The notes below the pieces were generated by a model. The model was given only the letters and a program-made list of their open reading frames with translations. It was not told the DNA's origin and did not search any database. DNA of 64,000 nt, taken from Bdellovibrionota bacterium. GTDB taxonomy: Bacteria; Bdellovibrionota_G; JALEGL01; DATDPG01. Below, in pieces: positions 4,116 to 64,000 of the stretch. A program made the translations under genes and the position numbers. Numbering within the stretch: position 1 is the first letter of the stretch; each line of letters opens with the position of its first letter. Location of the stretch: positions 59,570-123,569 of the forward strand of contig DATDPG010000019.1 in the NCBI GenBank assembly GCA_035292885.1. The letters run 5' to 3'.

Positions 4116-4392
4116 TCAAGTCTCCTTTCTTTTCTTTGGTTGACGTTTGACAGCCCGTTACAACCCGCAAACTTTTTCTACGTCCGAAAAGAGAAAATTC
4201 ACTGACATGTGTCATGGTTTTTGATAAATATTAACATCAAATATGTGCCGTAATTTCAACGACGGCGGGCCGAATCGCAGGTAGCTGCACGAATCGCCAC
4301 GTCCTCCGTCCCTAGAACCGAAAAACCGTGAGACAAATCAGTTTTGTTTCTGGCGGGATGCGCAGAATGACTTCAATTACAAGGGAGGTCGT
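4116..4392. promoter_or_regulatory. AT-rich divergent promoter region (hsp20 / CBS gene)
   Basis: Local GC drop. Contains the imperfect inverted repeat ttgataaatattaacatcaa. No CIRCE element seen. An RBS (aagggagg) precedes the ATG at 4393. Confidence 0.3.
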
Positions 4393-4863
4393 ATGTCGAC
4401 GTATCGAGCTCGGGATATAATGAAGCGCGACGTCATGACCGTGCCGGAAGATATGACCGTTCGCGAACTCGCCACTTTTCTGATCGAAAACCAAATCAGC
4501 GGCGCCCCCGTGACCAATAAGAGGGGGAGGATCGTCGGCGTCGTATCGATGCGCGATATCGTTGGCGTGGACGTCGACCGGCCCGACTCGGTGTCCGGCT
4601 CGCGCAACCGCCCGGAATTTTACGACATGTCATGGGACAACATGAATTTGATCGACGAGGTTCCGCAGATGCACATTGAGCGGCAGGGCATGCTGGTCGG
4701 AGACGTCATGAATTCCGCGGTTTACAAGGTTCACCCCGACGCTCCGGTTCGAGACATCGCACAGACGATGCTCCAGGCGAAGATTCATCGGGTGATGGTC
4801 ATGAACGGCGGAGACCGTCTAGAGGGTATCGTCACGACGATGGATCTCCTACCTCTGATCTAG
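4393..4863 (+). CDS. CBS domain pair protein
   Basis: 156 aa with two CBS motifs (IVGVVSMRDIV, LEGIVTTMDLL). Confidence 0.75.
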   Translation: MSTYRARDIMKRDVMTVPEDMTVRELATFLIENQISGAPVTNKRGRIVGVVSMRDIVGVDVDRPDSVSGSRNRPEFYDMSWDNMNLIDEVPQMHIERQGMLVGDVMNSAVYKVHPDAPVRDIAQTMLQAKIHRVMVMNGGDRLEGIVTTMDLLPLI

Positions 4864-4953
4864 TTGATCACGCAAAAATAGCCTTGGGCTCCTGCCACCC
4901 AAGGCTATTTTTGTGTCAGCTTAGCCCGACTAGTTCCCCCTTGTATTACCGGA

Positions 4954-5430
4954 CTAGGCCGCTTCTTTTTCGGCGTTGTGGACCTGGAACTTATGCCACC
5001 GGACCGTGAGCACCGGGCACAGGGCGTTTCGCACCACCCTTTCGGCTACGCTGCCCATCACAAAGCGGTCGATTCCCGTTCGTCCGTGCGTTGACATCAC
5101 GATCCAGTCGGCTCCGGAGTCGTCCGCTTCGTCACAAATCATCTGCGGAACCGAACGATTCGTGGATACGACCACCGACGTCACCTTTACGGGCGCCTTT
5201 AACTCCTGAATGTACTTGTCCATTTCTTTCCGCGCCGTATCGTTTGTCTTTTGTTCCAGATTTCGTCCCGGCCAGAGCGAATCCTCGCCGTAGATCACCA
5301 AACCGCTCAAATCCCGGACGTGAACCAGGCGCAATTCGGCGTTAAAGGCTTTACATAACTCCATCGCTTGTTCGGCCGCTTCTTTTGAAGCATCGGAAAA
5401 ATCAATGGGTACCAAAATTTTCTGGATCAT
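4954..5430 (-). CDS. universal stress protein (UspA family)
   Basis: N-terminus KILVPIDFSDAS, ...DWIVMSTHGRTG...GSVAERVVRNALCPVLTV typical of USP. Confidence 0.8.
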   Translation of the reverse strand: MIQKILVPIDFSDASKEAAEQAMELCKAFNAELRLVHVRDLSGLVIYGEDSLWPGRNLEQKTNDTARKEMDKYIQELKAPVKVTSVVVSTNRSVPQMICDEADDSGADWIVMSTHGRTGIDRFVMGSVAERVVRNALCPVLTVRWHKFQVHNAEKEAA

Positions 5431-9888: not shown

Positions 9889-9974
9889 GATTTTCTCCTT
9901 TTCCGGCGCGGCTTTAAGCGGCGCGATTCAGGGCATTTTCTACCGCGATTCGGCGCATGACAAGATGATTCGGA

Positions 9975-10421
9975 TCAGCGATTCGGAACGAGAAGAATCT
10001 CACCCGCGACATCGGAATCCAGCGCTAACGTCGTCTCGTCAATCTGTATAACGACGGACGGCCTGAGCTGTTTCAGTCGGAGTCGGGTCCCCGGAAGAAT
10101 GCCTAGGGAAGAGAGTTCATTGAGTCGCGTGGGATGACTCACTTGAAGCGCCGCGACTTCACCACATTGTCCGGGTTGCAGATCCAACAAGCGGGTCATG
10201 CCTCCTTCGCCGTTGATTCTTGGATGTTGGTGCGTTCCGAAAATGCGGCTCAGCCATCGCGCGGCGATCGATCGAGAGGGATCCGGAAATTCATAACCGC
10301 ACGTAGGACAGCGGATCAAGCCGCATTTTCCGGCAAACGGGCAGGCACACGTTTCCGCTTGCGGCGAGAACGCTTTGTTGCATAGAGGACAGCGAAGGGA
10401 AACTTCCGGTGTCAGAGCCAT
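9975..10421 (-). CDS. FeoA-domain protein with N-terminal Cys-rich zinc-ribbon-like segment
   Basis: C-terminal FeoA-like SH3 motif (MTRLLDLQPGQCGEVAALQ...GILPGTRLRLKQ). N-terminal CPLCNKAF...CACPFAGKCGLIRCPTCGYEF. Start chosen at MALTPEV to limit overlap with feoB; an upstream ATG at 10493 is possible. Confidence 0.55.
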   Translation of the reverse strand: MALTPEVSLRCPLCNKAFSPQAETCACPFAGKCGLIRCPTCGYEFPDPSRSIAARWLSRIFGTHQHPRINGEGGMTRLLDLQPGQCGEVAALQVSHPTRLNELSSLGILPGTRLRLKQLRPSVVIQIDETTLALDSDVAGEILLVPNR

Positions 10422-12624: not shown

Positions 12625-12975
12625 ATGAAATCGCTTGTTGTGGTTTTGGGTGTTCTTTTCGCGTCGAGTGCCATGGCGCAAGACAAACTCGCCTCGCAGA
12701 AGGCGTTGTTCGATAAGTATTGCAAGAAATGTCATGCCGAGGATGGGAGTGGGAAAAAGCCCACCGGTGAATGGCTGCCGGTCGTAAAGACGCTTAAATT
12801 GGAAAAGCCGGAAATGTTGAGCATCATCTCGGATGAAGCCAAGAAGAAGACGGACGACGACATCAAGAAAATGATCCTGGAAGGAAAAGACAAGATGAAG
12901 GCGACCAAAGCGACGCCGGAAGAGGCGATTGAACTGGTCGCATACGTTCGTCATTTGCAGGGCGGCACGAAGTAA
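12625..12975 (+). CDS. periplasmic monoheme class I cytochrome c
   Basis: Signal peptide, a single CKKCH motif, and an RBS (caggagg) upstream. Paralog of the gene at 45214..45588. Confidence 0.8.
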   Translation: MKSLVVVLGVLFASSAMAQDKLASQKALFDKYCKKCHAEDGSGKKPTGEWLPVVKTLKLEKPEMLSIISDEAKKKTDDDIKKMILEGKDKMKATKATPEEAIELVAYVRHLQGGTK

Positions 12976-45213: not shown

Positions 45214-45588
45214 TTATTTCGCCTTTGACTGCAGGTCTCGCGTGTATTCCGTCAACGCCGTAATGTCGGCGTCCGACAGTCCTTCCAACTTCTTCATCTT
45301 CCCTTTGCCCTCTTTCATCGACTTCTTAATGTCGTCGTCGGTGATTTTCTTGGCTTCGGGGGAAAGGATGCTGAGCCCTTCCGGCTTTTCGAGCTTCAGG
45401 GTTTTAGCTACCGGCATCCAGGAGCCGTCCGCCTTCTTTCCGCCGCCGTCTTCCGCGTGGCATTTCTTGCAATGCTTGTCGTACAGCGCCTTTTTCGCGG
45501 CGTCATCCGCCGCGAATGCGGACGCGGCAAACATCAAAGCGGGCACAACCAGGATTCCGATCAGTCCAATCAACGTCTTCTTCAACAT
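45214..45588 (-). CDS. periplasmic monoheme class I cytochrome c (paralog of 12625..12975)
   Basis: RBS ggagg 7 nt upstream of the ATG at 45588. Signal peptide. CKKCH. Near-identical core (LYDKHCKKCHAEDG.GKK...KTLKLEKPE) with the first copy. Confidence 0.8.
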   Translation of the reverse strand: MLKKTLIGLIGILVVPALMFAASAFAADDAAKKALYDKHCKKCHAEDGGGKKADGSWMPVAKTLKLEKPEGLSILSPEAKKITDDDIKKSMKEGKGKMKKLEGLSDADITALTEYTRDLQSKAK

Positions 45589-45644
45589 AGGCTTCCTCCA
45601 GTGTTTCTTTTTAGATGATGCCAAATTTACGAACATGATTCGGA

Positions 45645-45686
45645 TCAATGAAATGAAAAGAGGGCCGGCCCGTATGGGCCGGCCCC
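45645..45686 (-). terminator. intrinsic terminator after the outer-membrane cytochrome gene
   Basis: gggccggccc-gtat-gggccggccc GC hairpin followed on the minus strand by a T-rich run. Confidence 0.5.
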
Positions 45687-45719
45687 GTCAATCGCTCTGG
45701 ACGGTTCAAACTCTCGCGC

Positions 45720-48700
45720 TTAACGCAACGTCGCGTTCGGAACCGCCACGCCGGTGATTACCTTATACGTCCCTTGGAGGACGCCGACCTCGTATCCGGC
45801 GTTATGGACGCCCATGCTGCCGTCTCGAACCACCAGATTGTGGTTCCAGATCGCCCGGCGGATCTTGTCGGATCGGGCCCACTTGAAGGCCCCGCCGGCG
45901 GGATAGACGCTAACGCCGGGGTTGCAGTCCGCGGCGTTCGTGCAGGCCGTAGTAAGGTCGTTGTCGCACTTGCCGGCAATGTACGCCCCGCACGTGCTGA
46001 GGCACTTGTCGTGCGTCGGCGTCGGATCCAAAGGATCGACCGTACCACACGAGATGGTCGTATCTTCTTTGCACCGGTTCTTGCTCGAACCCGAGGTATT
46101 GCACGGACGCGCATCCGCGCCTGCACCGTTGAAGTTCGAGTAACCCAGAGCGTCCGGAACGATGCAGTCGTTGTCCGTGGAACACTCGATCTCATCCGTA
46201 CTCCCGGCGGTGGACCTCGGTTTTGCGATGGTGCACTTGTTGGTCGCAGTGACACAGGGGCCGAAGTACATCGTCCCCGTCGTCGCAATTTTGCAGTCCT
46301 CGTCCTTGGAGCAACTATAGGCCGAACGTTGATCACACTTTCCGGCTGTGATCGTCCCGCACGGTCCGTAGTTCGTCGCTGATACGGTCGTCACATTCAC
46401 CTTCTTCAGGTTGCATCCGGCATCCGAAGTGCAGAATTGAGCGTCGGCCACAATCGTAGTACTTGCTGCCGAGCAAGTCTTGACCGCGTCGCAACTCGTG
46501 TCACCAGCCGCCGTGCAACTGATGTAGGGCGCCAGCGTACACTTCTTGTTTGCGTTGCAGTCACCCGCGTCCAGTGTAGTGACACTGCACGTTCCCAGGT
46601 TCACGTCGTCGTACGCTTTGATGGCGTCCGACAAGAGGAGCGCAAGCCCCGTGACTTCGTCCTGGATCCCCTCGATCGTCCCATCGCCGTCGTAATCGCC
46701 GCGAGCCTCACGGTTAATCTCCGTGAGATCCGTGTGACATGGCGTGCACGCGCTGATGTTCGCGAGCTCACCCGCTTCACCGGCTACGGTCTCCTCTTCC
46801 TCGGCACCGACTAGATGGCCGACGCCGTGACCGCTCATAATGTTGAAAGAGTGACCGCCCAAGTGGCGGAACCCATCCTCCGTCGCATCCGGCCCCTCGG
46901 CCATGTGGCACGTGAGGCACTTCCGGTTCTCCGTCGGCAATGTCGGGTCACCCGAAACATCCGCCAGAATAAATCCCGGCTCGGAATGGAACGAATTCCC
47001 CGTTGTGAAGACATCGTCGATTCCGTTTTTGTCGAGGTCGAGAAGAGCCCCCTTTCCTTCGAGAACGGGAGCCTGCGGATTGTAGTGGACCTGTCGCGTG
47101 TAATAGTCCGCGTTTTGCTCCAACGTCTCGCAGAGCGTATCTGAAACGCCGTCGCGATTCGTGTCGCACGAAAACTCTCCGAAACTGTAGAGGCCGTCGT
47201 GGCACTTGTAACAAACGGCCGCCTTCCCGGCATCCACTGTCGATTCGTCGATGATCATCTCGAGCTCTCCGTGCATTCGAAGCTGGTCCTCGTTTGTCGC
47301 GTCGTGCGGGTCATGACACCCAGCGCACCCGATACCGACGAAAGCCTCCTGTTCCGTGATCGGCGTGAGGGCTTCCTCGCCCCCCTCCACATAATTGATG
47401 AAGCCCTTGGAGGTATGGCAGCGTGTACAGGCTGCGTTCGTGAGCCATGAAACCTGATAGCTGGCGGAGCCGTGCGAGACGCCGGTCATGTTGTGCGAGG
47501 AGTTGATCCATTCGGCCTCTTGCGTATGACACTGGCCGCAGATACCGGTCTGAGAAGCGGAGACACCGATCTTCGTGGCGTCGCCGTTGTGTCCCGAACC
47601 CGGGCCATGGCAATTCTCACACTGAACACCGCTTAGAGCGGCCACGGAAGGCGCATCCGCCAAGAAATCGGCGTATGTGCCCGGCTGGGTGGAAACGTCA
47701 AAGCCGGTCGAGGCCACGGCCTCGTCAAATCCGCCGTTTGCGGCGGACGTATTGTAACCGACCGTTTCAAAGCCCCACAGATAGGGCTCGGGTGCCAGCG
47801 ATGACATGGCCAGATACGAATTTTCGTAGAGCTTTGAGTGATTTGTTCCCTGCCACTCGCCGACTTTGTCCGGCATCGCCGAACCGTCATGGCATCCGGC
47901 GCACTCGGGCCTCGCCGCGTCGCCGGTGATACTTCCGATGCCTACATACGTCCCGGCATACATCCGGAACGAACCCACGATCGTGCAATGATCCACGCCG
48001 CCGTCCGAGGTGTATTTACAATTGGGCGCGACACGGCCGCACGCCCGTACACCATCCGCATCGGGTCCCACAGCCGATTCATCGACCGTCGCCGTGTAGG
48101 CCACCGTGTAATACCCCTCGACATCCGGCGTGAACTTGGGGAGCTGAAGCGCTGAGGCTACGGTTCCGGAATCGGCAAAAACGGCTGCAGATCCATCCGG
48201 GGGTGTCAGCGTCCAAGACCAGTCATCGTTGATGGGCTTGGCGCGCCTCGTGGTCGGCGTGCTCGTCGAAGGCAACGAACCGTTACACGCTGTCGAAGTG
48301 GATGTGTACTCCAATATGACCGAACTGTTCGGTCCCTGCAGGTAGAGGGGAACATTCAGCGGAACGGTCCAAAGACCGCTCGACCGCTGAATCTCGGCAC
48401 CGGCGTCCTGAACATAGACCACCTGTGTCGTGCTGTCGCTGTTCCCGGCACCGTCGTCCACCGTCAACCTGAAATAGAGTTTCGTATCTTCGATCGAAAC
48501 AGGGAGCGGTTGCCACTTGTACTCATCACTTTGTCCGCCGTGCGCGGCGTTCTCCTCAGCTTCCCTCAAACCGACGGTCAGAAAATCCTTAAGCGCGGGA
48601 GCGGTGAACGGAAGAGTTGAGGACGTGCTCCCGGCCGTCGCGGTCGCGAAGGGGCCGGAGACCTGCTGCCAGCTGTAGTTCACGACACTTCCGCGGCTGT

Positions 48701-52960: not shown

Positions 52961-54211
52961 ATGCCAGAGCTCAATCCGTTTAAAATTGCTCAGCAACAGT
53001 TCGATGAGGCGGCCGAAAAGCTCGGCCTCGACAGCGCTACGCGAGAACTTCTCCGGTGGCCGATGACCGAAACGATCGTCAGCATCCCCGTCCGGATGGA
53101 CGACGGAACGACGAAAGTGTTTCGGGGGTATCGCGTTCAATACAACGGGTCCCGTGGGCCGACAAAAGGCGGCCTTCGGTGGCATCCGGAAGAGACGATC
53201 GACACCGTGCGAGCCCTGGCGGCATGGATGACCTGGAAGACCGCGTGCGTCGATATTCCTCTCGGCGGCGCAAAAGGCGGCGTTACCTGCAATCCGAAGG
53301 CGATGTCGACGAATGAAAAAGAGCGTCTGGCGCGCGGCTATATCCGCGCCGTCTCTCGTCAGCTGGGCGTCATGAAGGATGTTCCGGCGCCCGACGTCTA
53401 CACGACGCCGCAAATCATGGGTTGGATGATGGATGAGTTCGAGACGATCGTCGGCGAGCATCATCCGGGCGTCATCACCGGGAAACCGTTGCCGTTAGGC
53501 GGCTCCGAAGGTCGCGGCGATGCAACGGCTCGCGGCGGAATTTATTGCGTCCGCGAAGCGGCCAAGAAAATCGGCCTCGATCCAGCCAAGGCGACTTACG
53601 CCATCCAGGGATTCGGCAACGCCGGCCAATTTGCGGCGACGTTGCATAAGGAAGTCCTCGGCGGCGGCCGGCTGCTCGCGGCCAGCGACTCCCGCGGCGG
53701 CGTCACGAGCCCGGACGGCATGAATCCGGAGGCTCTGGTGAAGTTCAAGAATGAAACCGGCAGTGTCGTCGGATTCCCGAATACGAAGCCGATTTCGAAC
53801 GAGGAACTTCTGGTCATGAAATGCGATGTCCTCTATCCGTCGGCGCTGGAGAATGTCATCACGAGTCAAAACGCCGCGAACATCAAGGCGAAGATCGTTT
53901 GCGAGCTGGCGAACGGCCCGACGACGCCGGAAGCGGACACGATTCTGTTCAAGAATAATGTGTTCGTTCTCCCGGACTTCATGGCCAATGCCGGAGGCGT
54001 GACGGTCTCTTATTTTGAGCAGGTCCAGAATACGTACAACTATTACTGGCCGATCCAAGACGTCCATCAGCAGTTGGATCGAAAGATGACCGACGCGTTC
54101 AACGCGGTGTACGAGACCTCGCAGAAGAAAAAAGTCCACATGAGGCTGGCTGCATATATGGTGGCCGTGGCGCGCGTGGCGGAGGCCTGCAAGCTGCGCG
54201 GCTGGGTCTAA
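52961..54211 (+). CDS. gdhA: glutamate dehydrogenase (Glu/Leu/Phe/Val dehydrogenase family)
   Basis: KGGLRWHP, DIPLGGAKGG and GFGNAG signatures. RBS ggagg. Confidence 0.9.
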   Translation: MPELNPFKIAQQQFDEAAEKLGLDSATRELLRWPMTETIVSIPVRMDDGTTKVFRGYRVQYNGSRGPTKGGLRWHPEETIDTVRALAAWMTWKTACVDIPLGGAKGGVTCNPKAMSTNEKERLARGYIRAVSRQLGVMKDVPAPDVYTTPQIMGWMMDEFETIVGEHHPGVITGKPLPLGGSEGRGDATARGGIYCVREAAKKIGLDPAKATYAIQGFGNAGQFAATLHKEVLGGGRLLAASDSRGGVTSPDGMNPEALVKFKNETGSVVGFPNTKPISNEELLVMKCDVLYPSALENVITSQNAANIKAKIVCELANGPTTPEADTILFKNNVFVLPDFMANAGGVTVSYFEQVQNTYNYYWPIQDVHQQLDRKMTDAFNAVYETSQKKKVHMRLAAYMVAVARVAEACKLRGWV

Positions 54212-54214
54212 TTA

Positions 54215-54381
54215 AGCGTCCCGAGCCCGACATATCTTGATAGTCGGCCGCCGCTGCATCCCGGTTGGCTGCGTTGCTCCCCCTCGACGTACAGCTTTGC
54301 AAGTACGCCGTCGTCGTCGCGCCTTGCCAACCGGGCGCATCGGCGTCCTTTGTTATCAATCTATCTCGGGCTCGGGACGCT
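54215..54381. mobile_element. 167-bp MITE-like palindromic element, copy A
   Basis: Terminal inverted repeats agcgtcccgagcccga / tcgggctcgggacgct. Internally an imperfect long hairpin. About 94% identical to the reverse complement of the element at 63140..63306. Begins 3 nt after the gdhA stop. Confidence 0.6.
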
Positions 54382-54442
54382 AGCGTTCCATAAGGGAACA
54401 CGGCGTTCTTTGCGGCGCCGGGTGGAATGTTATCATGCCGAT

Positions 54443-56827
54443 ATGCCCACCCGGCGCCGTCGTTTATCTCCTTCGAAATCGGCTCGTAAACGGCCTCCTC
54501 AGACTGAATCGAGTCGAGTCATTCAGCGCTATCTGCGCCGGTATCCGGGGCTCCGCGCCCGAATCATTCAGAATTTTCTCGTCCGCCTTCATTCCCAAGG
54601 GATCGTTTCGGTGGACGAAGTCTACCGGATTGCACTCGGGAAATCGGCGCTTCGGCAGCAGATCAAACACCGAGTCGCCATGAACATCGATACGGCCGTT
54701 CAATGGACGCGGACGGAACGGAACGCCGTATGGAAAACCGTTTTGTCGTACGCCGAGCGGCACTTTTCTCCGGAAGAAATTCACGATCTGGTCGGCGTGA
54801 CGGTCAAACGGGAAGAAGCGCAGAATCTTCAAGACATCGCCGGTCTTCCGGGAATTTCCTTCGAAATTCTTAAACGCAGGGTCGCGGATTTCTGCAAGCT
54901 TCCGCGGACCATCATTTCCCTGCCGCCTTCCGATCTGGTGGCGACCCGCGTCGCCCTCATGCGGCAGTTTGTCAGCGATCACATTGATTTTCTTACGGTC
55001 GCACGAAACTACGTCCAGGTGCGGGACCTGGACGTCGTCGCCCAGCGAATCATCGGTCCGAGGGAAGGAATGGGGCGGATCGGCGGGAAAGCGGCCGGCC
55101 TGCTTCTGGCCGACAAGATTTTACGCCAGCATTACCAGAACGCGGGAAGAGAGCCTCTGATGCCGCTCAAGACACCCGACTCATATTATTTGCGGTCCGA
55201 TTTGAACGACGAGTTCGTCCGCCGGAACGGCCTCATGGAATACGCGAGCCAGAAATACAAATCGCAGGAGGCGATCGAAGCCGATTACCCCCTGCTCCGG
55301 GAGCTTTTTCACGCCGGTTCATTCCCTCCCGAAGTCGTCTCCCGCATTCGAAAATTGCTGGAGAAACTCGGACCCACGCCGTTGATCGTCCGTTCCTCCA
55401 GTTTGTTGGAAGACAGCCTCGGCGCCGCGTTTTCCGGGAAATACCGGAGCATCTTTCTGGCGAATCAGGGCTCCCTTTCCAATCGACTGATTCGCTTTTT
55501 GAGCGCCGTAAAGGAGGTTTACGCGGGCGTGCTCTCGGCCGATCCACTGGTCTACCGGCGGGAGCGGGATCTAATCGACTACGACGAATTCATGGCGATT
55601 CTGATTCAACCGGTCGTGGGAAGGACGTATCGGCACTATTATTTTCCACTTTTCGCCGGCGTGGCGTTTTCGCGAAACGATTACTACCGGTGGGACCGCC
55701 GAATTCGCCGCGAGGACGGCTTGGTCCGCCTCGTCGCGGGGCTCGGCACACGCGCCGTGGACCGTGTCAGCGCGGAGTATCCGAGAATGATCGCCCTCAC
55801 GGTCCCGTCGCTCCGTCCCCAAGGGGACGTGGACGAGATCTGTCGCCAGTCTCAGCGCCGCGTGGATGTCGTGAATCTTAGAACGAACAGATTTGAAACA
55901 CTCAATTTTACCGACGCGATCGAGGCGGAACCCCCGCCGAATTTCGATCTGGTGGCTTCCATTGTAGAAGAGGAAGCCTTGCGACCGATCGTCGGAAATT
56001 TCGTGGATACCTCCCGACAATCGATCTGCCTGACGTTTGACAAATTGATTGAATCGACGCCGTTCGCGCCTCACATGCGTGAGGTGTTAAGCGTCTTGGA
56101 AAAGGGCTACGGATGCCCGGTGGACATCGAGTTCGCCAGCGATGGAAAAGATTTTTATCTGCTTCAATGCCGGCCGTTGGCGCAGAAAATCGAAGCTAGC
56201 CGTGTGCGCGTTCCGACGGACGTCGAGCCGAAGCGGGTTCTGTTCAACGCCCAGCGTGACGTGATGAACGGCATCGTGCGAAATATTGAATACATTGTTT
56301 ATGTTCCGGCCGAAGCGTACGACGACGTCTCTGATCTGACGACGAAACAGATGATCGGCCGCGTGGTGGGGCAGCTGAACCAGAAACTGCACGGCTCCAG
56401 ATTCATCTTGCTCGGTCCGGGACGCTGGGGATCCAACGACATCAATCTGGGCGTGCGCGTGAATTACGCCGACATTCGAAACAGCCGCGCTCTCATCGAG
56501 GTGGCTCATGAGAAGGACGGTTACGTTCCCGAAGTTTCGTTCGGCACACACTTCTTTCAAGATCTTGTGGAATCCGGAATCAGTTACCTGCCGCTCTATC
56601 CGGATGAGCCGGGCGGAATCTTCAATGCGGATTTTCTTCTGAATTCACCGAACCGCTTGCCGAAACTGTTGCCCAACCACAAGAGTTTTGCCCCGATAGT
56701 GCGGGCCATTCATGTCCCTGAAGTGGCGGAAGGCGAGTACGCCCATTTGCTGATGGACGGCGAGAATGAATTGGCGCTCTGTTATCTGGGCCCGATGCAG
56801 AGGGAAGAGGCGTCGACGCAGGCGTAG
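54443..56827 (+). CDS. PEP/pyruvate-binding (PPDK_N / PpsA N-terminal ATP-grasp-like) domain protein with N-terminal unknown domain
   Basis: GGKAAGLLLAD...LIVRSSSLLEDSLGAAFSGKYRSIFL matches the nucleotide-binding domain of PEP synthase/PPDK. No phospho-His swivel domain seen. Start set at the first ATG downstream of the MITE. Confidence 0.6.
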   Translation: MPTRRRRLSPSKSARKRPPQTESSRVIQRYLRRYPGLRARIIQNFLVRLHSQGIVSVDEVYRIALGKSALRQQIKHRVAMNIDTAVQWTRTERNAVWKTVLSYAERHFSPEEIHDLVGVTVKREEAQNLQDIAGLPGISFEILKRRVADFCKLPRTIISLPPSDLVATRVALMRQFVSDHIDFLTVARNYVQVRDLDVVAQRIIGPREGMGRIGGKAAGLLLADKILRQHYQNAGREPLMPLKTPDSYYLRSDLNDEFVRRNGLMEYASQKYKSQEAIEADYPLLRELFHAGSFPPEVVSRIRKLLEKLGPTPLIVRSSSLLEDSLGAAFSGKYRSIFLANQGSLSNRLIRFLSAVKEVYAGVLSADPLVYRRERDLIDYDEFMAILIQPVVGRTYRHYYFPLFAGVAFSRNDYYRWDRRIRREDGLVRLVAGLGTRAVDRVSAEYPRMIALTVPSLRPQGDVDEICRQSQRRVDVVNLRTNRFETLNFTDAIEAEPPPNFDLVASIVEEEALRPIVGNFVDTSRQSICLTFDKLIESTPFAPHMREVLSVLEKGYGCPVDIEFASDGKDFYLLQCRPLAQKIEASRVRVPTDVEPKRVLFNAQRDVMNGIVRNIEYIVYVPAEAYDDVSDLTTKQMIGRVVGQLNQKLHGSRFILLGPGRWGSNDINLGVRVNYADIRNSRALIEVAHEKDGYVPEVSFGTHFFQDLVESGISYLPLYPDEPGGIFNADFLLNSPNRLPKLLPNHKSFAPIVRAIHVPEVAEGEYAHLLMDGENELALCYLGPMQREEASTQA

Positions 56828-56836
56828 CGGCAAGCG
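56732..56836. repeat. direct repeat copy 1 (3' end of the PEP-binding-domain gene)
   Basis: About 105 bp (ggcgagtacgcccatttgctgatggacggcgagaatgaattggcgctctg...) repeated at 57486..57590 with about 7 mismatches. Confidence 0.7.
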
Positions 56837-56861
56837 TGGAGTTCGCGATCGGGAAACCCGG

Positions 56862-57143
56862 TCAGCTGATTTTTTCTTTCTCCGCCATCCGCCCGCTTAC
56901 AAACTTGTAAAGTACGCTTGAAATCAGCGTCTGATAAGGTATCCCTTCTTCCGCCGCCTTCACCCGAAGCCGCTCCAGCACCTGAGACGGAATTCTTATA
57001 TTCACCCTCTTGTCTTTGGCGAGCGTAGCGCGGGCGTATTTTTGGTATTTAGATTTTTCCCTTCTCAGTGAACGAACGGAACGCCATTCGTCTCGATCAT
57101 AAGAATCAAGAATCTCCTTCTCCTCTATATTTGGATGCTTCAT
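56862..57143 (-). CDS. brnA: BrnA-like RHH antitoxin
   Basis: ...RVNIRIPSQVLERLRVKAAEEGIPYQTLISSVLYKFV typical of BrnA/CopG antitoxins. Confidence 0.65.
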   Translation of the reverse strand: MKHPNIEEKEILDSYDRDEWRSVRSLRREKSKYQKYARATLAKDKRVNIRIPSQVLERLRVKAAEEGIPYQTLISSVLYKFVSGRMAEKEKIS

Positions 57144-57421
57144 TTGCGTCCCTTTCGTATATATATTCGGGTAGCCTTACGACTCGGAATGATGGTTTTA
57201 AACACGATTTCTGCGCCCTTTTCTTCAAAGGGGACCAAACATGCGTAACCGTTGATATCGAGGACGAAAATTCGCTGAAAAGGGTACTTCGCCTTATTGG
57301 GATGTTCCAAGATATCGAGAACACCTCCTCTTTCAATGACCAAAACCGCTTCCTCGAAGGAAATTTCTCGTTGGCTCTTAAGGCTCGCATTCTTCCCCGG
57401 ATCCCACGTAAAAACCTTCAC
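57140..57421 (-). CDS. brnT: BrnT-like (DUF497) ribonuclease toxin
   Basis: MKVFTWDPGKNASLKSQREISFEEA matches the BrnT N-terminal signature. GTG start. 4-nt overlap with brnA. Confidence 0.65.
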   Translation of the reverse strand: MKVFTWDPGKNASLKSQREISFEEAVLVIERGGVLDILEHPNKAKYPFQRIFVLDINGYACLVPFEEKGAEIVFKTIIPSRKATRIYIRKGRK

Positions 57422-57485
57422 TGTTGCTAATTGTAAGACAATGTGTGCCTAACGTCAACAACACTCTGGGCTAGTCGTCGCAGCC

Positions 57486-57590
57486 GGCGAGTACGCCCAT
57501 TTGCTGATGGACGGCGAGAATGAATTGGCGCTCTGATATCTGGGCCCTGTGCAGAGGGAAGAGACGTCGACGCAGGCCTAGCTGCAGGCT
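57486..57590. repeat. direct repeat copy 2 (degenerate duplicate of gene 3' end, downstream of brnTA)
   Basis: See copy 1. Reading frame broken by a stop (gcgctctgatat). Confidence 0.7.
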
Positions 57591-57651
57591 TGGACTGATT
57601 CAGATCATAGTAATTGTGCGTGCCGGCAATCATGATCCAGAATAGGAAATT

Positions 57652-58734
57652 ATGACCCAAATCCGAGCCTGGAAGTTCCAAAAAGCGGGGGAGCCGTTTT
57701 CGTTTGCGGAATCCGCCATGCCCAAACCGGCGCCGGGAGAAGTGTTGGTGCGAGTCGCGGGTTGCGGGGTTTGCCACACGGATCTCGGATACGTCTACGA
57801 CTCCGTTCGGACCGTCAAACCCCTTCCGCTGACGCTCGGTCACGAAATCAGCGGATTCGTGGAGGAGGTCGGCGCCGGGGCAAAAGAATGGATGGGAAAA
57901 GCGGTGATTATTCCGGCCATCCTTCCCTGCGGCGAATGTGATCTTTGCAAGAAGGGGAGACGATCGATCTGTCGGCGGCAGAAAATGCCTGGGAACCATA
58001 TCGACGGTGGTTTCGCAAGTCACATTGTTGTTCCCTCCCGTTTTCTGTGCGCCGTGCACGTTCGAAACGAAAATGAACATTTCGGCGATTCCGGCGTCAC
58101 GCTGAAGGAGCTCTCCGTCGTGGCGGATGCCGTTACCACGCCGTACATGGCGATTAAAAGGAGCGGCTTGGCAAAGGGCGATTTGGCGATCTTCGTCGGT
58201 GTCGGCGGAATTGGGGGTTTTGGTGTTCAGCTCGCCGCCGCTTTGGGCGCAACGGTTGTGGCCGTCGACATCTCGGACAAACGTCTTCAATTCATGAAGG
58301 AACATGGCGCCGAGGCCATTTTCAATTCGAAAGAGATCAACGGAAAGGAACTCCGAAGGGCGATCGGCGCGTTCGCGGCCGAACGAAAACTTCCGTCGTA
58401 CGAATGGAAGATTTTTGAAACCTCGGGGAGCGCCGCCGGGCAAGAACTAGCGTTTGGGCTCTTGACCTTCGGCGCTCATTTGGCCGTCGTCGGTTATACG
58501 ATGGAACAACCCGCCCTGCGCTTAAGCAATTTGATGGCGTATGACGCCCAAGCTTCGGGAAATTGGGGATGTGATCCGGTCTATTACCGGGAGGTGCTGG
58601 ATCTGGTAAAGAGCGGAAAGATCAAGCTTGCGCCGTTCGTGGAGCTGCACCCATTGAACCAGATCAACGAGATTTTCAACTGGGCGCACCACAAGAAACT
58701 GGAACGGCGCGCCGTTCTGATACCGGAAAAATAA
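57652..58734 (+). CDS. had: Zn-dependent MDR alcohol dehydrogenase, candidate 6-hydroxycyclohex-1-ene-1-carbonyl-CoA dehydrogenase
   Basis: GCGVCHTDLGY zinc-ADH motif. GVGGIGGFGVQ Rossmann fold. 360 aa. Gene order matches the Thauera had-oah-dch-bcrCBAD cluster. Confidence 0.55.
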   Translation: MTQIRAWKFQKAGEPFSFAESAMPKPAPGEVLVRVAGCGVCHTDLGYVYDSVRTVKPLPLTLGHEISGFVEEVGAGAKEWMGKAVIIPAILPCGECDLCKKGRRSICRRQKMPGNHIDGGFASHIVVPSRFLCAVHVRNENEHFGDSGVTLKELSVVADAVTTPYMAIKRSGLAKGDLAIFVGVGGIGGFGVQLAAALGATVVAVDISDKRLQFMKEHGAEAIFNSKEINGKELRRAIGAFAAERKLPSYEWKIFETSGSAAGQELAFGLLTFGAHLAVVGYTMEQPALRLSNLMAYDAQASGNWGCDPVYYREVLDLVKSGKIKLAPFVELHPLNQINEIFNWAHHKKLERRAVLIPEK

Positions 58735-58744
58735 AGGAGGACCG

Positions 58745-59845
58745 ATGTCGCCGTTTAAAGATCATGATTTGGTTCCGAATCCGAAGTTCACGCAGATCCT
58801 TTACGAATTAAAGCCGTGTCGGAACCCGAAAGGGTCGTCCGTTGCCGACCTTTTCAACGCGTGGATCACGCTGAACAATCCGGAGCAGTTCAATTCGTAC
58901 ACGACGCAGATGGTGAAAGAGACCATTTTGGCGTTTCGGACCGCGTCGAATCAGCGCAATGTGGTCGCGGTCGTCTTGACGGGCGCGGGCGAAAAAGCCT
59001 TCTGTACGGGGGGGAACACGAAGGAATACGCGGAGTACTACGCGGGCCAGCCGGACGAATATCGCCAATACATGAGGCTGTTCAACGACATGGTGACGAC
59101 GATTCTCCAGTGCGACAAGCCGGTGATCTGCCGGGTCAACGGCATGCGGATCGCCGGAGGCCAGGAAGTCGGCATGGCGTGTGACTTCTCGATCGCGAGC
59201 GACCGCGCAGTTTTCGGACAGGCCGGACCGAAGCACGGCTCCGTTCCGGACGGCGGCTCGACGGATTTCTTGCCTCTTTTCGTCGGCGTGGAGCGGGCGA
59301 TGGAAAGTTGCACGCTCTGCGAGACCTGGAGCGCCTATCAGGCGTATCGGCTCGGATTGATCACCGACGTCGTTCCGGTGCTGAAACGGAATGGAACGTT
59401 TATTTCGAACCCGGCGGTCATTACGGGCCGCTGGATCGATGAGGCCGGAAAGATCGTCTACGGCCAATTCAAGACGGGAGAGGACCGATCGAGCGCCGAA
59501 AAGATCGTTCGCGAATGCAAGGTGGATCTGTCGGCGCTCGATCGTGCGGTCGAAAGTATGTGCACGTCCCTTCTAATGACGATGCCGGGGTGCCTCTCCA
59601 AGACGCTCAGCTCCGTTCGAAAGCATAAGCTGGAACATTGGGACCGGAACCGAGAGACCAACCGCGACTGGCTCGGCCTGAACATGATGACCGAAGCGAA
59701 GGTCGGGTTCCGGGCGTTCAACGAAGGAACGAAGGAAAACCGCGAGGCCGATTTTATCGAGCTGCGCCGGAGACTTGCCCGCGGCGAGCGATGGAGCGAC
59801 ACGTTGGTCGAGGCGGTCCTCCCGTCGAAGAAGGAGAAGATTTAG
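58745..59845 (+). CDS. oah: crotonase-fold enzyme, candidate 6-oxocyclohex-1-ene-1-carbonyl-CoA hydrolase
   Basis: 366-aa enoyl-CoA hydratase/MenB-like (VLTGAGEKAFCTGGN, GGQEVGMACD), the size expected for Oah. Confidence 0.45.
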   Translation: MSPFKDHDLVPNPKFTQILYELKPCRNPKGSSVADLFNAWITLNNPEQFNSYTTQMVKETILAFRTASNQRNVVAVVLTGAGEKAFCTGGNTKEYAEYYAGQPDEYRQYMRLFNDMVTTILQCDKPVICRVNGMRIAGGQEVGMACDFSIASDRAVFGQAGPKHGSVPDGGSTDFLPLFVGVERAMESCTLCETWSAYQAYRLGLITDVVPVLKRNGTFISNPAVITGRWIDEAGKIVYGQFKTGEDRSSAEKIVRECKVDLSALDRAVESMCTSLLMTMPGCLSKTLSSVRKHKLEHWDRNRETNRDWLGLNMMTEAKVGFRAFNEGTKENREADFIELRRRLARGERWSDTLVEAVLPSKKEKI

Positions 59846-60616
59846 ATGGTCCCCTTCAAGAAGATCAAAGTCGACAAACTCTACGACGGCCAGGTTTGGT
59901 GGATTACGTTGAATGTTCCCAAGGGTAACGTTCTGGACCGGGAGATGATGTTGGAGATCGAAGACTCCGCGAGATCGGCCCGCATTCCGTCGGTGAAGGC
60001 GCTTGTTTTCGAGGGGGCGGGGGATCATTTCTCGTTCGGCGCCAGCGTGGCCGAACACACCAAAGAAGCGGCGCCGAGCATGCTGGCGGCGTTCCATCAA
60101 CTCTTCCGAACGTTGATCGATTCATCGAAACCTCTGGTTGCCGTCGTACGGGGTCAATGTCTCGGAGGAGGAATGGAATTGGCGACGTTTTGCCACTGGG
60201 TGTTCGCTTCCGAAAACGCCATGTTCGGCCAGCCCGAGATTCAGCTCGGCGTTTTTCCGCCGGTCGCATCGATCGTGCTTCCAGCCAAGGTCGGCCAGGC
60301 GGCCGCGGACGATCTCATCCTGACGGGTCGGTCGATTCCGGCGCGCGAAGCCAAGGAAATCGGCCTCATCACTTCCGTTTCCGGCGATCCAAAGGCGGAA
60401 GCGACGAACCTGCTCGACAAACAGATTCTCCCCAAGAGCGGTGCGGCGCTGGAATTCACCGTAAAAGCGAGCCGGTATGAATTTCATGAAGCCTTCCGCC
60501 GTGGAATCGAGCGGCTGGAGAAGACGTATGTTCGTGAATTGATGGAAACCGCCGACGCCAACGAGGGAATCGCATCCTTCCTGGAGAAACGGAAACCGGC
60601 CTGGAAAAATCGATGA
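59846..60616 (+). CDS. dch: enoyl-CoA hydratase, candidate cyclohexa-1,5-diene-1-carbonyl-CoA hydratase
   Basis: 256-aa crotonase (FEGAGDHFSFGA, GGGMELA). Confidence 0.5.
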   Translation: MVPFKKIKVDKLYDGQVWWITLNVPKGNVLDREMMLEIEDSARSARIPSVKALVFEGAGDHFSFGASVAEHTKEAAPSMLAAFHQLFRTLIDSSKPLVAVVRGQCLGGGMELATFCHWVFASENAMFGQPEIQLGVFPPVASIVLPAKVGQAAADDLILTGRSIPAREAKEIGLITSVSGDPKAEATNLLDKQILPKSGAALEFTVKASRYEFHEAFRRGIERLEKTYVRELMETADANEGIASFLEKRKPAWKNR

Positions 60617-60623
60617 GGAATTC

Positions 60624-60695
60624 GGGGGACACACGACTGGACCCAAACTCCAATTGCTTCTCAAGAAGCCAATTCGGGTCCATACATGTGTCCCC
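60624..60695. repeat. 72-bp imperfect nested palindrome between dch and bcrC
   Basis: gggggacacac...gtgtcccc outer stem with an inner ccaattg...caattcgg stem. Confidence 0.4.
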
Positions 60696-60706
60696 TTAAT
60701 TAAGAG

Positions 60707-61870
60707 ATGACCGTCGAGCAGATCATCGGGCGCTGTCAGGTGCTCTACGACGATCTGGAATTCAAATACGTCCGAGAATGGAAATCGAAAAAAGCCGGGC
60801 GCAAAGCGGTGGGTTACATGCCGATCTATATCCCCCGGGAGCTGGTGCGGGCGGCCGGTATTCTTCCCGTCGGCCTGATGGGCGGGGGGGACCAGCTGGA
60901 AATCATCCGCGGAGATTCGTACTTTCAGTCATACATCTGCCACATTCCGCGAAGCACGATCGAACTGGGTCTCCTCAAGAGATTCGATGACCTCGATGGT
61001 TTGATCTTTCCGAGCACGTGCGACGTCATCCGAAACCTGTCGGGGATGTGGAAGCTTCTGTTTCCCGACCGGTACGTGAAATATTTTGATGTTCCGCAGA
61101 ATTTCGACCGAAATACGGCGGGAACGTATTACCGCCACGAGCTTCAGACGCTGCAAACGGATTTCGAACGGTTGTCCGGACAAGAGATTTCGGCGGAAGG
61201 ACTTCGAAAGGCGATCCGGCTCTATAACGAGAACCGGCGCTTGATTCGGGAGCTGTACGATCTTCGCTGCGAGCGGCCCTGGCTCGTTCCAACGACCGAG
61301 AGCTACCTGCTCCTTCGAGCGGGAAATCTCCTGGACGTCGAAGAGCACAATCGAATGCTGGCGGACTACCTCCGAGCCGTCATTCGCGTCGACCGCCGTC
61401 CTCTGGACAACAGCCGGGTCGTGATCCGGGGCGTTTTCTGCGAGCAGCCGCCGCTCAACCTGATCAAGACCTTGGAACGTTCGGGCTGTTACATCGTGGA
61501 AGACGATTTCGTCCTGGTCTCCCGCTGGATTCGAGGAGACATCCCCACCGAGGGGGACCCGCTCGAGAATCTGGTTCGCGCCTTTTTGGAGGACAGCGTG
61601 GAAACCGCCGTTCGGTACGACAGCGCGGACGAAAAAGGAACCCGATTGATCGAAATCGTCCGAAAGCGAAAAGCGGACGGCGTGATTTTTTGTGCGCCCA
61701 GTTTCTGCGATCCGGCACTTCTGGACCAGCCGATGTTGACGGCGGCTCTGGAAAAAGAGGAGATTCCTTATACGCACTTCAAGTTCGCCGAGAACACCGG
61801 GCAGTTTCAGGTCATCCGGGAGCAGGCCGGAACCTTTTCGGACTCCGTGAAACTTTGGGGGACCCTATGA
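60707..61870 (+). CDS. bcrC: benzoyl-CoA reductase / 2-hydroxyacyl-CoA dehydratase family subunit (BcrC/BadD-like)
   Basis: 387-aa HGD-D family. Positioned before the BcrB-like and activase-type genes. Confidence 0.6.
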   Translation: MTVEQIIGRCQVLYDDLEFKYVREWKSKKAGRKAVGYMPIYIPRELVRAAGILPVGLMGGGDQLEIIRGDSYFQSYICHIPRSTIELGLLKRFDDLDGLIFPSTCDVIRNLSGMWKLLFPDRYVKYFDVPQNFDRNTAGTYYRHELQTLQTDFERLSGQEISAEGLRKAIRLYNENRRLIRELYDLRCERPWLVPTTESYLLLRAGNLLDVEEHNRMLADYLRAVIRVDRRPLDNSRVVIRGVFCEQPPLNLIKTLERSGCYIVEDDFVLVSRWIRGDIPTEGDPLENLVRAFLEDSVETAVRYDSADEKGTRLIEIVRKRKADGVIFCAPSFCDPALLDQPMLTAALEKEEIPYTHFKFAENTGQFQVIREQAGTFSDSVKLWGTL

Positions 61871-63141
61871 GCGGAAAAATTCAAAAAGAACAGAGCATGG
61901 TCGTTCAAAAAGAAATGATCGCCGACTATTACAGCCGTCTTTCCCGGGCGCACGACGAAGGGAAGAAGGTCGTCTACACGTTTGTCCCCGGAAATTTGAT
62001 TGAATTGATCGACGCGCTCGGATTTTTGCCCGGTCTACCCGAGATCAACGCTCTTCAATCGGGGATGCGCGGCAAGTCGGCGGGGTACATCGCCGAGGCG
62101 GAAAAGGCGGGACATTCGGAAGATGTCTGCACGTACGTCAAGTGCGACATCGGGATGAAAAAATCGGGAAACATCGGTCCGACCGGCGAGAAAATTCCCG
62201 AACCGGATCTGTTGCTCCTGTCGTACACCGGCTGCTTCACCTTCATGAAATGGTTCGAGCTTCTCCGGAAGGAATACAACTGCCCGGTGGCGATGCTCCA
62301 CGTTCCCTACCAAGCGGACGGCGTCATCACCGACAACATGCGCAACTACGTCGTCGACCAGTTAAAAAACAACATTATCCCGACCATGGAAAAGGTGGTC
62401 GGTCGAAAGCTCGATCTGGACGAATTGTCGGCCCGCATGGCTCGCTCGGCGAAGGCGGAAGACGATTTGGTAAGCGTGTTCCAGTCGGCCAAGAAACGGC
62501 CGTCGCCGATCGACGCGTATTTCGGGGGCGTCTATTATATCGGGCCGATCTTCACGGCGTTCCGGGGCAGCGAAGCGTGCCAGACCTATTACCGCGTTCT
62601 CCGCGGTGAAGTGGAAGAGCGGATCGAGGAGCACAAAGGGCCGGTGACGCCCGAAGGGGACATTTCGCAGGAAAAATACCGTCTCGTCGTAGAGGGGCCT
62701 CCCAATTGGACCAACTTCCGGGAGTTCTGGAAGATGTTTTACGATGAGGGGGCGGTCGTTGTCGCCTCGACCTATACGAAAGTCGGGGGCGTCTACGACC
62801 GAGGCTTCCGGCACGATCCGAATCGTCCGCTCGAATCGCTCGCCGAGTACTGTCTCGGCTGTTACACGAACTTGAATCTCCCGTCGCGGATTTCGATGCT
62901 GGAAAAATATGTGAAGGAGTACGACGCGGACGGCTTTCTCATCAATTCGGTCAAGAGCTGCAATTCCTTCTCGGCCGGACAGCTTTTGATTTTGAGGGAA
63001 CTCGAAGCCCGCACGGGAAAGGCGGGAGCGTTCATCGAGACGGACCTCGTCGACCCCCGGTACTTCTCGGCGTCGAACGTGAAGACTCGACTTGAGTCGT
63101 ACTTTCGAATGATCGACATGAAAAGGGCAAGGGCAGCCTAG
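61867..63141 (+). CDS. bcrB: benzoyl-CoA reductase / 2-hydroxyacyl-CoA dehydratase family subunit (BcrB/BadE-like)
   Basis: 424 aa. ATGA overlap with the preceding gene. Confidence 0.6.
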   Translation: MSGKIQKEQSMVVQKEMIADYYSRLSRAHDEGKKVVYTFVPGNLIELIDALGFLPGLPEINALQSGMRGKSAGYIAEAEKAGHSEDVCTYVKCDIGMKKSGNIGPTGEKIPEPDLLLLSYTGCFTFMKWFELLRKEYNCPVAMLHVPYQADGVITDNMRNYVVDQLKNNIIPTMEKVVGRKLDLDELSARMARSAKAEDDLVSVFQSAKKRPSPIDAYFGGVYYIGPIFTAFRGSEACQTYYRVLRGEVEERIEEHKGPVTPEGDISQEKYRLVVEGPPNWTNFREFWKMFYDEGAVVVASTYTKVGGVYDRGFRHDPNRPLESLAEYCLGCYTNLNLPSRISMLEKYVKEYDADGFLINSVKSCNSFSAGQLLILRELEARTGKAGAFIETDLVDPRYFSASNVKTRLESYFRMIDMKRARAA

Positions 63142-63306
63142 TGTCCCGAGCCCGAAATAGATTGATAACAAAGGTCGCCGATGCGCCCGGATGGCAAGGC
63201 GCGACGACGAAGGCGTACTTGCAAAGCTGTACGTCGAGGAGGAGCAACGCAGCCAGCCGGGATGCAGCGGAGGCCGTCTATCAAGATATGTCGGGCTCGG
63301 GGCACT
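63140..63306. mobile_element. 167-bp MITE-like palindromic element, copy B (inverted relative to copy A), inserted between bcrB and bcrA
   Basis: TIRs gtgtcccgagcccga / tcgggctcggggcac. Internal sequence about 94% identical to the reverse complement of 54215..54381. Confidence 0.6.
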
Positions 63307-63308
63307 AA

Positions 63309-64000
63309 GGTGGAGTGCTTTATCGGAATTGACTTGGGATCGACCACCACAAAAGCGGTCATCATCGATCGAAACCGGAATATTTTGGGCAGTGGAATTA
63401 CGAACAGCCGGAGTAATTATGACGTCGCCTGCAAGATCGCCCGCGAGGAGGCGTTCACAAACGCCCGCTTCTCTCTGATTCGCGGTAAGGCAAAGCAGCG
63501 GGGCTTGCTGAATTCGGAGGGAGAGAAGGCCCTGGTCCGACTCGGAAACGAATTTTTCGTCCAAGACTTTTTGATCCAGTTGTGGAACCTTCGCGATTTA
63601 GCCACGGAACGGCTTCGGAACGAGCGCTATGCAACTTCCCGATTGACACTGCAAAAAATTCTCAGAGAAATATTTGAAGATATTGAAGAAAAGGCGATGA
63701 AAGACGTCGGGGGAGGGGGGAGACGAAAATCGGACTTTTTCCGAGATCTGGCCGGAGCCTATTATCAAGAATCGGCGGAACGTTACGCCCGGGAGGGAAA
63801 AATCCCCTTCGAGCTGCTGATGAGCGTGTTCGACGGCGTGATTTTTCTTGTCGAGAATTCGATGGAGGAAAAAGGATTCGCTGAAATCATGAAAGGTCTC
63901 TTCGACCGGGTCGGCTTCGGCATCTTCCCGAAGGAACGGGAAACCGATTGGCGGGAGTTGATCGAGGCAACGGCCTCCACGCCTTTCAATGAAGCGGGAA
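63309..64000 (+). CDS. bcrA: BadF/BadG/BcrA/BcrD-type ATPase (benzoyl-CoA reductase alpha-like / activase), partial
   Basis: GTG start. VECFIGIDLGSTTTKAVIID acetate/sugar-kinase-fold ATPase signature of the BcrA/HgdC family. Runs off the window end. Confidence 0.6.

Follow-up and report, generated by a model that had tools for sequence, protein, structure and literature searches.

A MITE-like hairpin element at the bcrB/bcrA junction of a Bdellovibrionota bacterium and its dispersed family

We have analyzed two inverted hairpin repeats, copies A and B, in a 64,000-nucleotide stretch of DNA from a Bdellovibrionota bacterium (assembly GCA_035292885.1, contig DATDPG010000019.1, positions 59,570 to 123,569), referred to below as the window. 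Copy A lies directly behind the glutamate dehydrogenase gene (gdh), and copy B separates bcrB, the gene for benzoyl-CoA reductase subunit B, from bcrA. It is very probable that both copies belong to a dispersed, non-autonomous family of hairpin repeats and that copy B is an insertion into the bcrB/bcrA junction. The best explanation of the observations as a whole, to which we assign a probability of about 0.7, is a sequence like a MITE, or miniature inverted-repeat transposable element, that reached the window by two independent insertions at TA dinucleotides, one of which regenerated the bcrB stop codon. TA-duplicating transposition as the mechanism is given slightly better than even odds, and our confidence that the mobilising enzyme would be IS630-like, a proposal made by analogy, is low to moderate.

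The two copies in the window

A repeat search found one long inverted repeat pair of this description in the window, at 54215-54383 and 63138-63306, with arms of 169 nt that are 93% complementary and are separated by 8754 nt. A first-pass annotation of this DNA had described two inverted copies of a 167-bp palindromic element with about 94% identity, and the pair is real: copy A and the reverse complement of B agree at 157 of 168 aligned positions and differ by 11 substitutions, without an internal indel. Aligned in direct orientation the copies are only 64% identical, so they are truly inverted. Each is ~65% identical to its own reverse complement; taken together, these alignments describe imperfect palindromes with a clear polarity, placed in opposite orientations. 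The longest identical run that they share is 28 nt.

The repeat lies where the annotation had placed its 167-bp unit, while our base-by-base reading shortens the body of the element to 165 nt, at 54216-54380 for copy A (core strand on the + strand) and at 63141-63305 for copy B (core strand on the - strand), where it fills the spacer between bcrB and bcrA. Copy A is flanked on the left by AA (54214-54215; a TA is present at 54213-54214) and on the right by TA (54381-54382), and copy B by TA on both sides (63139-63140 and 63306-63307). The terminal repeats, put at 15 bp by the annotation, are close to that figure: perfect terminal pairing extends over 16 nt in copy A (AGCGTCCCGAGCCCGA) and over 17 nt with 1 mismatch in copy B. 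The 13-mer GTCCCGAGCCCGA occurs exactly at both ends of copy A and at one end of copy B, the other end of B having 1 mismatch, and it is found nowhere else in the 64 kb. The apical core of copy A (54269-54324, + strand) consists of CTGCGTTGCTCC, a variable stem-loop and then TCGTCGCGCCT; the corresponding conserved core of copy B is at 63197-63252 on the - strand.

The long imperfect hairpin that the annotation proposed is also predicted by RNA folding. Copy A folds into a single such hairpin at -93.9 kcal/mol (z -6.8) and copy B at -100.8 kcal/mol (z -7.9), and none of 200 dinucleotide shuffles was as stable in either case. The copies are non-coding: the open frames through the element differ among copies, and the differences in length at the apex are not multiples of 3. 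Signal recognition particle RNA and 6S RNA were considered as identities for the long hairpin and rejected, given the lack of an Rfam match and the occurrence of the element in several copies and in both orientations.

The bcrB/bcrA junction

The bcrB gene (61867-63141, + strand) encodes 424 amino acids and ends in a TAG codon at 63139-63141; bcrA (BcrAD_BadFG ATPase; 63310-64000, + strand) begins with GTG at 63310 and extends past the end of the window. These assignments are based on Pfam matches, on the identity of the BcrB product to HLG18498.1, named 'benzoyl-CoA reductase subunit B [Bdellovibrionota bacterium]' by NCBI, and on the match of the BcrA N-terminus (MECFIGIDLGSTTTK in the window, MDCVVGIDLGSTTTK in the closest relative). 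At the other copy, the gdh gene (52961-54211, + strand) stops with TAA at 54209-54211, and copy A begins 5 nt later. The positions of both copies relative to these stops and to the bcrA start are thus as first annotated.

In the closest relative, locus L006 (80% BcrB identity), bcrB and bcrA overlap in TAATG, and in L132 (77% BcrB identity) they are separated by a 1-nt spacer in the sequence ACC TAA C GTG GAC TGT. Copy B therefore does split the bcr operon, as had been claimed. The junction in the window reads GCC-TA/G..element..C/TA-AG-GTG GAG TGC, where the slashes mark the ends of the element; 63306-63312 holds the right flanking TA, AG and the GTG start. Removal of the 165-nt body and of one TA leaves GCC TAA G GTG GAG TGC, a junction built like that of L132. 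This restored junction is the best single piece of evidence for insertion into the TA of the bcrB stop with duplication of the TA. The gene order had-oah-dch-bcrC-bcrB-bcrA-bcrD is kept in relatives that lack the element. Another relative, L131 (2461-2708; JGI 3300037506, 78% BcrB identity), has an unrelated, palindrome-rich spacer of 248 nt between bcrB and bcrA, from which it appears that this junction has taken insertions more than once, independently.

According to this scheme copy B would have entered the TAA stop of bcrB, and the left TA together with the first G of the element would have formed the new TAG, which leaves the BcrB protein unchanged; bcrA would have retained its GTG start, 4 nt past the foot of the hairpin. 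On its + strand, that of the operon, copy B shows no site resembling a promoter or a terminator, so that nothing seen there would halt read-through; copy A contains one weak terminator-like site, at chance level. The only Shine-Dalgarno-like run upstream of the bcrA GUG is GGGG, 8-11 nt upstream, and it lies within the hairpin stem. Read linearly, the ancestral coupling of stop and start (1 nt) is interrupted, while a folded mRNA would return the two to each other's side, with the UAG a few nt from the GUG. By analogy with Correia-containing transcripts, the near-continuous terminal helix may be an RNase III-type processing site, and the effect of copy B on bcr expression may be nearly neutral. 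A regenerated stop without a terminator-like site suggests how an operon junction for an oxygen-sensitive, stoichiometric enzyme might tolerate an insert of 167 bp.

A large family of related elements

A third copy, C, is present in the same Bdellovibrionota metagenome-assembled genome (MAG). It spans 160 nt (L133:10034-10193), is 84-85% identical to A and B, and has the ends gcgt-TA/GTGTCCCGAGTCC...GGGACAC/TA-gttt. The contig that carries it, k141_4360353 in ENA (19.5 kb, G+C 56.1%), belongs to one assembly with the contig identical to the window and matches it in G+C content, and the gene adjoining copy C is in the same 90%-identity cluster as HLG20926.1, a protein of a Bdellovibrionota MAG in the accession series of the BcrB protein. 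The source MAG thus has at least 3 dispersed copies. Several copies also occur within single 8-kb loci of other genomes, for example L086, L065 and L111. The annotation had named a lack of further copies as what would make the pair a local duplication; with a third copy and a large family elsewhere, A and B are not a local duplication, and its view of a mobile family is upheld.

Relatives were reached through protein collections. Frame +1 of the element, when translated, gave some 14 protein matches, each a single stretch of 53-77% identity and each with the motif RPxLHPGWLRCSS...SSRLAxRAHRRP, and a profile made from these retrieved 95 'hypothetical proteins' without Pfam domains, which are gene calls that run across its copies. 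The minus-strand frame that is open throughout copy A (54213-54386) gave no protein match when translated; only frame +1 was productive. The core pattern CTGCGTTGCTC-N15-45-TCGTCGCGCCT, run against one genome per species, identified at least 120 genome stretches, and about 76 of 131 core-pattern matches, among those listed, are full hairpins, mostly of 160-176 nt. With a profile of 52 copies, 166 matches, full or partial, were obtained in 1.01 Mb of loci and exactly 2 in the window. The terminal-repeat pattern CCCGAGCCCGANATANNTTGATA, by comparison, had no match in 185,579 species genomes, and in JGI metagenomes it yielded only a chance match inside a gene of an A+T-rich organism.

The 1.01 Mb of loci was drawn from MAGs and a few isolates, and about 17 phylum-level groups are represented among the matches listed. 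The hosts among these matches include Acidobacteriota (many Vicinamibacterales, also Bryobacterales), Gemmatimonadota (Longimicrobiales and Gemmatimonadaceae), Myxococcota and other 'delta' MAGs, Planctomycetota, Binatia, Eisenbacteria, Methylomirabilota, Nitrospirae, Elusimicrobia, Verrucomicrobiae, Omnitrophota, Bacteroidota, one actinobacterium, candidate-phyla bacteria, and Beta- and Gammaproteobacteria. Among the last two are the isolates Denitromonas iodatirespirans IR-12 and Pelomonas sp. Root405, which provide cultured carriers of related elements. The 165-nt hairpin form is not found in all hosts: some matches in candidate phyla and Omnitrophota have flanks unlike it, and Betaproteobacteria, these two isolates among them, carry an element of about 330 nt with the same apical core, other terminal repeats (ATCCTAAAAACCTCAGTTGACCGC) and an extra left part of ~110 nt (loci L024, L041, L043, L051, L089, L097, L108, L113, L120, L126 and L130). 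A small conserved open reading frame (ORF) in this larger element was considered and rejected from reading of the sequences, since its frame differs among copies.

Searches of curated collections were largely negative. Rfam 15 gave no match to the window or to 18 + 4 + 4 family loci, and permissive searches of copy A and four loci gave none; the one Rfam match beyond noise among family loci was a group II intron in L009, described below. No match to copy A or to an acidobacterial copy was found among PLSDB plasmids, where the betaproteobacterial variant had 1 weak match, to a Polaromonas replicon, and the core pattern was absent from the IMG/VR viral collection. In full-text literature the core string appeared only in unrelated primers, and keywords retrieved only general papers on IS630 and MITEs. 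We could not find the hairpin family described in any resource searched, an absence that is no proof of its being undescribed.

This distribution has practical consequences for annotation. At least 95 'hypothetical protein' clusters in public collections are translations of the element, and its recognition would improve gene calling in MAGs from soil and sediment and may help explain some assembly breaks. Two independent short-read contigs from the same population end inside the copies, L002 (end 20317) in copy B and L004 (end 4337) in copy A; the element may interfere with metagenome assembly. A non-autonomous element common to Acidobacteriota, Gemmatimonadota, Myxococcota, Bdellovibrionota, Planctomycetota, candidate phyla and Betaproteobacteria, with a core more conserved than its ends, points to a widely distributed mobilising or binding protein.

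Ends, arms and core

Clean boundaries could be read in 26 copies of the family. Of these, 16 have CTAG and 5 TTAG as the left end tetramer, 21 have CTAG as the right end tetramer, and the consensus of the ends is Y-TA/G...C/TA-R. The outer arms are near-perfect inverted repeats that start with G(T/C)G, and the 17 outer pairs are 91.5% paired across the family. The outer ~25 nt of the arms vary by subfamily (TAGCAGCCCGTGGTGAAAGT, TAGTGTCCCGTCCCAGGAG, and TAGTGTCCCGAGCCCGA in the window), with the two arms of a copy remaining complementary; the best match to the ends of the window copies is in L104, a Binatia MAG.

Pairing is maintained by compensating changes. In the alignment of the 52 sequences, standard pairs occupy 93.1% of cells, against 71.4% in shuffles and 32-46% with slid partners. 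Shuffles give 102 cells with a double change and a covariation score of 0.168, where the alignment has 343 and 0.570, and none of 500 shuffles reaches the observed values. The apical stem covaries as well; its columns 147/163, for example, are UA in 18 sequences, CG in 17 and GC in 15. A non-palindromic core, GG-CTGCGTTGCTCCTC ... TCGTCGCGCCTTGCC, separates the covarying stems and is the most conserved part of the element; this asymmetric core, CTGCGTTGCTCC...TCGTCGCGCCTTGCC, contains invariant G.T/U wobbles. Its invariance in the DNA alignment is partly set by the search pattern; protein searches free of that bias also rank the core as most conserved.

Cells with G.U in the outer stem (23) are no commoner than those with A.C (32) in the 52-copy alignment, as is expected of a palindrome of double-stranded DNA and not of an RNA under selection on a single strand. 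As RNA, the strand complementary to the core strand has the more stable fold in 48 of 52 copies, by a mean of 10 kcal/mol (Wilcoxon p 2e-9). This asymmetry is not explained by the orientation of the copies, which show no orientation bias behind genes.

Insertion sites and mobility

TA flanks both sides of copy B, of copy C and of the 26 clean family copies. Elements of the IS630 family insert at TA and duplicate it, and ISY100 now and then leaves AA, or a TA at one end with an A at the other (PMC2170065); a preference of IS630 for TA within CTAG is given in the title of Tenzen & Ohtsubo 1991, as cited in the same paper. We propose that A and B are separate insertions of a small non-autonomous element that would transpose into TA, preferably in CTAG-like sites, with duplication of the TA, by means of a transposase provided in trans. 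Candidate sources would be IS630/Tc1-mariner and some elements of the IS5 group, which have this signature, and an irregular duplication like that of ISY100 could explain the AA and TA flanks of copy A. Flanks of this kind are also left by Correia elements.

Stop codons are frequent targets. At 15 of 52 ends the terminal TAG closes an open frame of 200 codons or more, compared with 5 and 6 of 52 in the shifted frames, and the element lies in either orientation behind such genes (7 versus 8). CTAG occurs 21 times in the window against 243 expected from base composition, and the ends of A and B supply several of these. It is this roughly tenfold depletion of CTAG in a window of 56% G+C, and its presumed scarcity in other G+C-rich hosts, that would make stop codons frequent targets.

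Other arrangements in the family bear on its mobility. Abutting copies with one TA in common are present in L074 and L014, and tandem arrays with a 171-nt period in L025 and L052. In L009 (8152-10066; JGI 3300076802, Ga0645783_00080) a group II intron (RF02005, RF00029), whose reverse transcriptase ORF is at 8497-9993, has inserted ~14 nt into the left arm of a copy whose ends are TA/GCAGCCCGTGGTG...CACCACGGGCTGC/TA. In L111 (Longimicrobiales OX639991.1; reverse strand, ~3784-5182) the right arm of a copy is interrupted by an IS110-family element, with the junctions CCACG/IS/GACTGCTAG and a transposase ORF at ~3885-4892. The interrupted copy lies between rpsB and tsf and another between rpsI and rpsB, and the stops of rpsI and rpsB are the terminal TAGs. 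The junction sequences of this IS110-family element recur in the Gemmatimonadota loci L109, L127, L052 and L090, which suggests an insertion sequence that targets the hairpin. A 'promoter-type' 5' flank in Gemmatimonadota was considered and rejected: it is a 68-nt extra segment inside the 5' arm, and the IS110 insertion in the 3' arm is a separate event.

Clustering of ORFs of at least 150 amino acids in the 8-kb neighbourhoods revealed no recurrent neighbour protein family, the largest cluster covering 4 of about 120 loci; without a recurrent adjoining gene, the element is taken to be non-autonomous. The first-pass description as a MITE-like palindromic element is apt in that the sequence is short, non-coding, TA-flanked, bounded by terminal inverted repeats and dispersed.

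Several observations weigh against the proposal of TA insertion by a MITE-like element. No empty allele of the A or B site was seen in the same species, and the comparators for the junction have only 77-80% BcrB identity. In the 1 Mb of loci neither an autonomous element with the same ends nor an IS630-family transposase or full-length partner was seen, solo matches to the ends being broken or diverged copies, and no transposase family recurs near the copies in the ~120 loci. Conservation is higher in the apical core than in the terminal repeats, the reverse of a typical MITE. The flanks do not agree on the length of the duplication, with AA and TA at copy A and a TAA on each side of the copy in L030, and CTAG is itself palindromic, so that in most copies a duplicated TA is indistinguishable from a CTAG that is part of the element. 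Copies within the MAG are 84-93% identical, with no sign of recent movement, and the count of three or more copies in the source genome is a lower bound.

Alternative explanations

A wider interpretation than insertion of a MITE-like element, and one we offer only tentatively, is that the copies belong to an undescribed cross-phylum superfamily of ~165-nt hairpins in which the core CTGCGTTGCTCC / TCGTCGCGCCTTGCC, with its fixed wobbles and internal loops, would be what a conserved trans-acting protein recognises and the arms would need only to pair. If so, these elements would home to stop codons, would be tolerated in operons such as rpsB-tsf and bcrCBAD, and would serve IS110-family elements and group II introns as landing pads. 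Part of the same evidence recalls REP/REPIN elements: a single-stranded DNA hairpin might be recognised through its asymmetric core and cut at the terminal CTAG by a host-encoded HUH enzyme (RAYT/IS200-like) instead of a DDE transposase that acts at the terminal repeats. The entire element, not just its ends, forms the hairpin, with a covarying apical stem; the most conserved part is non-palindromic with invariant G.T/U wobbles; IS110-family and group II intron insertions are nested in copies as in REPs; and no transposase is found nearby. A conserved tetranucleotide marks its ends, much as GTAG does those of REPs. At 165 nt the element is far above REP length, however, and its ends are CTAG, with no GTAG. 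The TA at both ends, held in common by abutting copies, fits a duplication, and the bcrB site is exactly restored when one TA is removed. No RAYT gene was seen in passing, no search having been aimed at RAYT. We consider the HUH explanation unlikely.

Selection for a structured RNA, cis-regulatory or small, is an improbable alternative, in which the copies inside operons would be processing, stabilising or attenuation signals. It would account for the conservation of the core across phyla, for the strong covariation, for the greater stability (~10 kcal/mol on average) of the core-strand complement in 48 of 52 copies and for the many copies directly 3' of stop codons. On the other side stand the balance of orientations behind genes (7 versus 8), which speaks against an orientation-specific RNA function, the numbers of G.U (23) and A.C (32) in the outer stem, the lack of Rfam matches at gathering or permissive thresholds, and the lack of a terminator-like site in copy B. 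Copies are, moreover, tandem, abutting or interrupted by insertion sequences, and their positions are not conserved between genomes. Very improbable, in our judgement, is a local duplication that bounds an 8.8-kb cassette, from the phosphoenolpyruvate-utilising gene through bcrB, able to invert or to be excised as the annotation had envisaged. Two inverted copies 93% identical and 8754 nt apart would suit such a cassette, but the MAG has a third copy on another contig, other genomes have hundreds of relatives, and A and B differ at 11 positions with no identical run above 28 nt. Contigs of two ENA assemblies and one Logan assembly show only the arrangement of the window and are identical to it across copy A or up to breaks inside A or B, and the order had-oah-dch-bcrCBA(D) is the same in relatives without the element. 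Recombination between inverted repeats inverts and cannot excise, and inversion would part bcrCB from bcrA. The proposed inversion or excision is therefore not sustained, and independent insertions of a MITE-like element remain our preferred explanation.

Other features of the window

Some further repeats were seen. Downstream of copy A, at 54412-54459, a 14-nt G+C-rich inverted repeat (GCGGCGCCGGGTGG / CCCACCCGGCGCCG) with a 20-nt loop is followed by TCGTTTATCT and may be the gdh terminator; the terminator scan did not flag it because its loop exceeds 8 nt. A direct repeat of 118 nt (56723-56840 and 57477-57594; 90% identical, 754 nt apart) consists of the last ~100 nt of a PPDK_N-family gene, including its TAG stop, copied beyond a brnT/brnA toxin-antitoxin pair. 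This pair (57140-57421 and 56862-57143, both on the - strand) lies between the two repeats, and the region looks like a small cassette inserted at the 3' end of the PPDK_N-family gene. A second inverted repeat, 12690-12900 and 45292-45502, is 211 nt long and 71% complementary; its second arm is within an ORF of 171 amino acids (45242-45757), and the arms are probably diverged paralogous coding sequence.

Comparison with known systems

The element has the generic traits of a MITE in its size, terminal inverted repeats and dispersal, and it resembles several described systems in part. Correia elements of Neisseria (CREE/NEMIS) are likewise short, non-coding sequences with terminal inverted repeats that occupy intergenic or intra-operon positions and form hairpins in transcripts, and they too are flanked by TA. 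They occur only in Neisseria, and it is the terminal repeats that define them, whereas in the present family the core is conserved, the ends vary by subfamily and the distribution crosses phyla; the sequences themselves look unrelated. REP/REPIN and ERIC elements are also intergenic hairpin repeats, often inside transcription units, and are landing sites for IS110-family elements. REPs, however, measure 20-40 nt and carry GTAG, in contrast to 165 nt, CTAG ends in the form TA/G...C/TA and a different core here, and ERIC elements are confined to enterobacteria and vibrios and have neither these ends nor this core.

MITEs inside operons have precedents, and Correia-containing transcripts are cleaved by RNase III, with an IHF site in some copies (PMC10969869). 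Chunjie, a MITE found in Geobacter uraniireducens (178-235 bp, many copies, one of them inside an operon; PMC10969869), is similar by description, but it is a single-species family. On the proposed mechanism IS630/Tc1-mariner elements and their MITEs RUP, Nezha and Stowaway would share insertion at TA with its duplication, and IS630 the preference for CTAG; the irregular flanks of ISY100 (PMC2170065) are like those of copy A. The family differs from all of these systems in that its core is conserved over its ends, its ends diverge while continuing to covary, and its members are spread over about 17 phylum-level groups.

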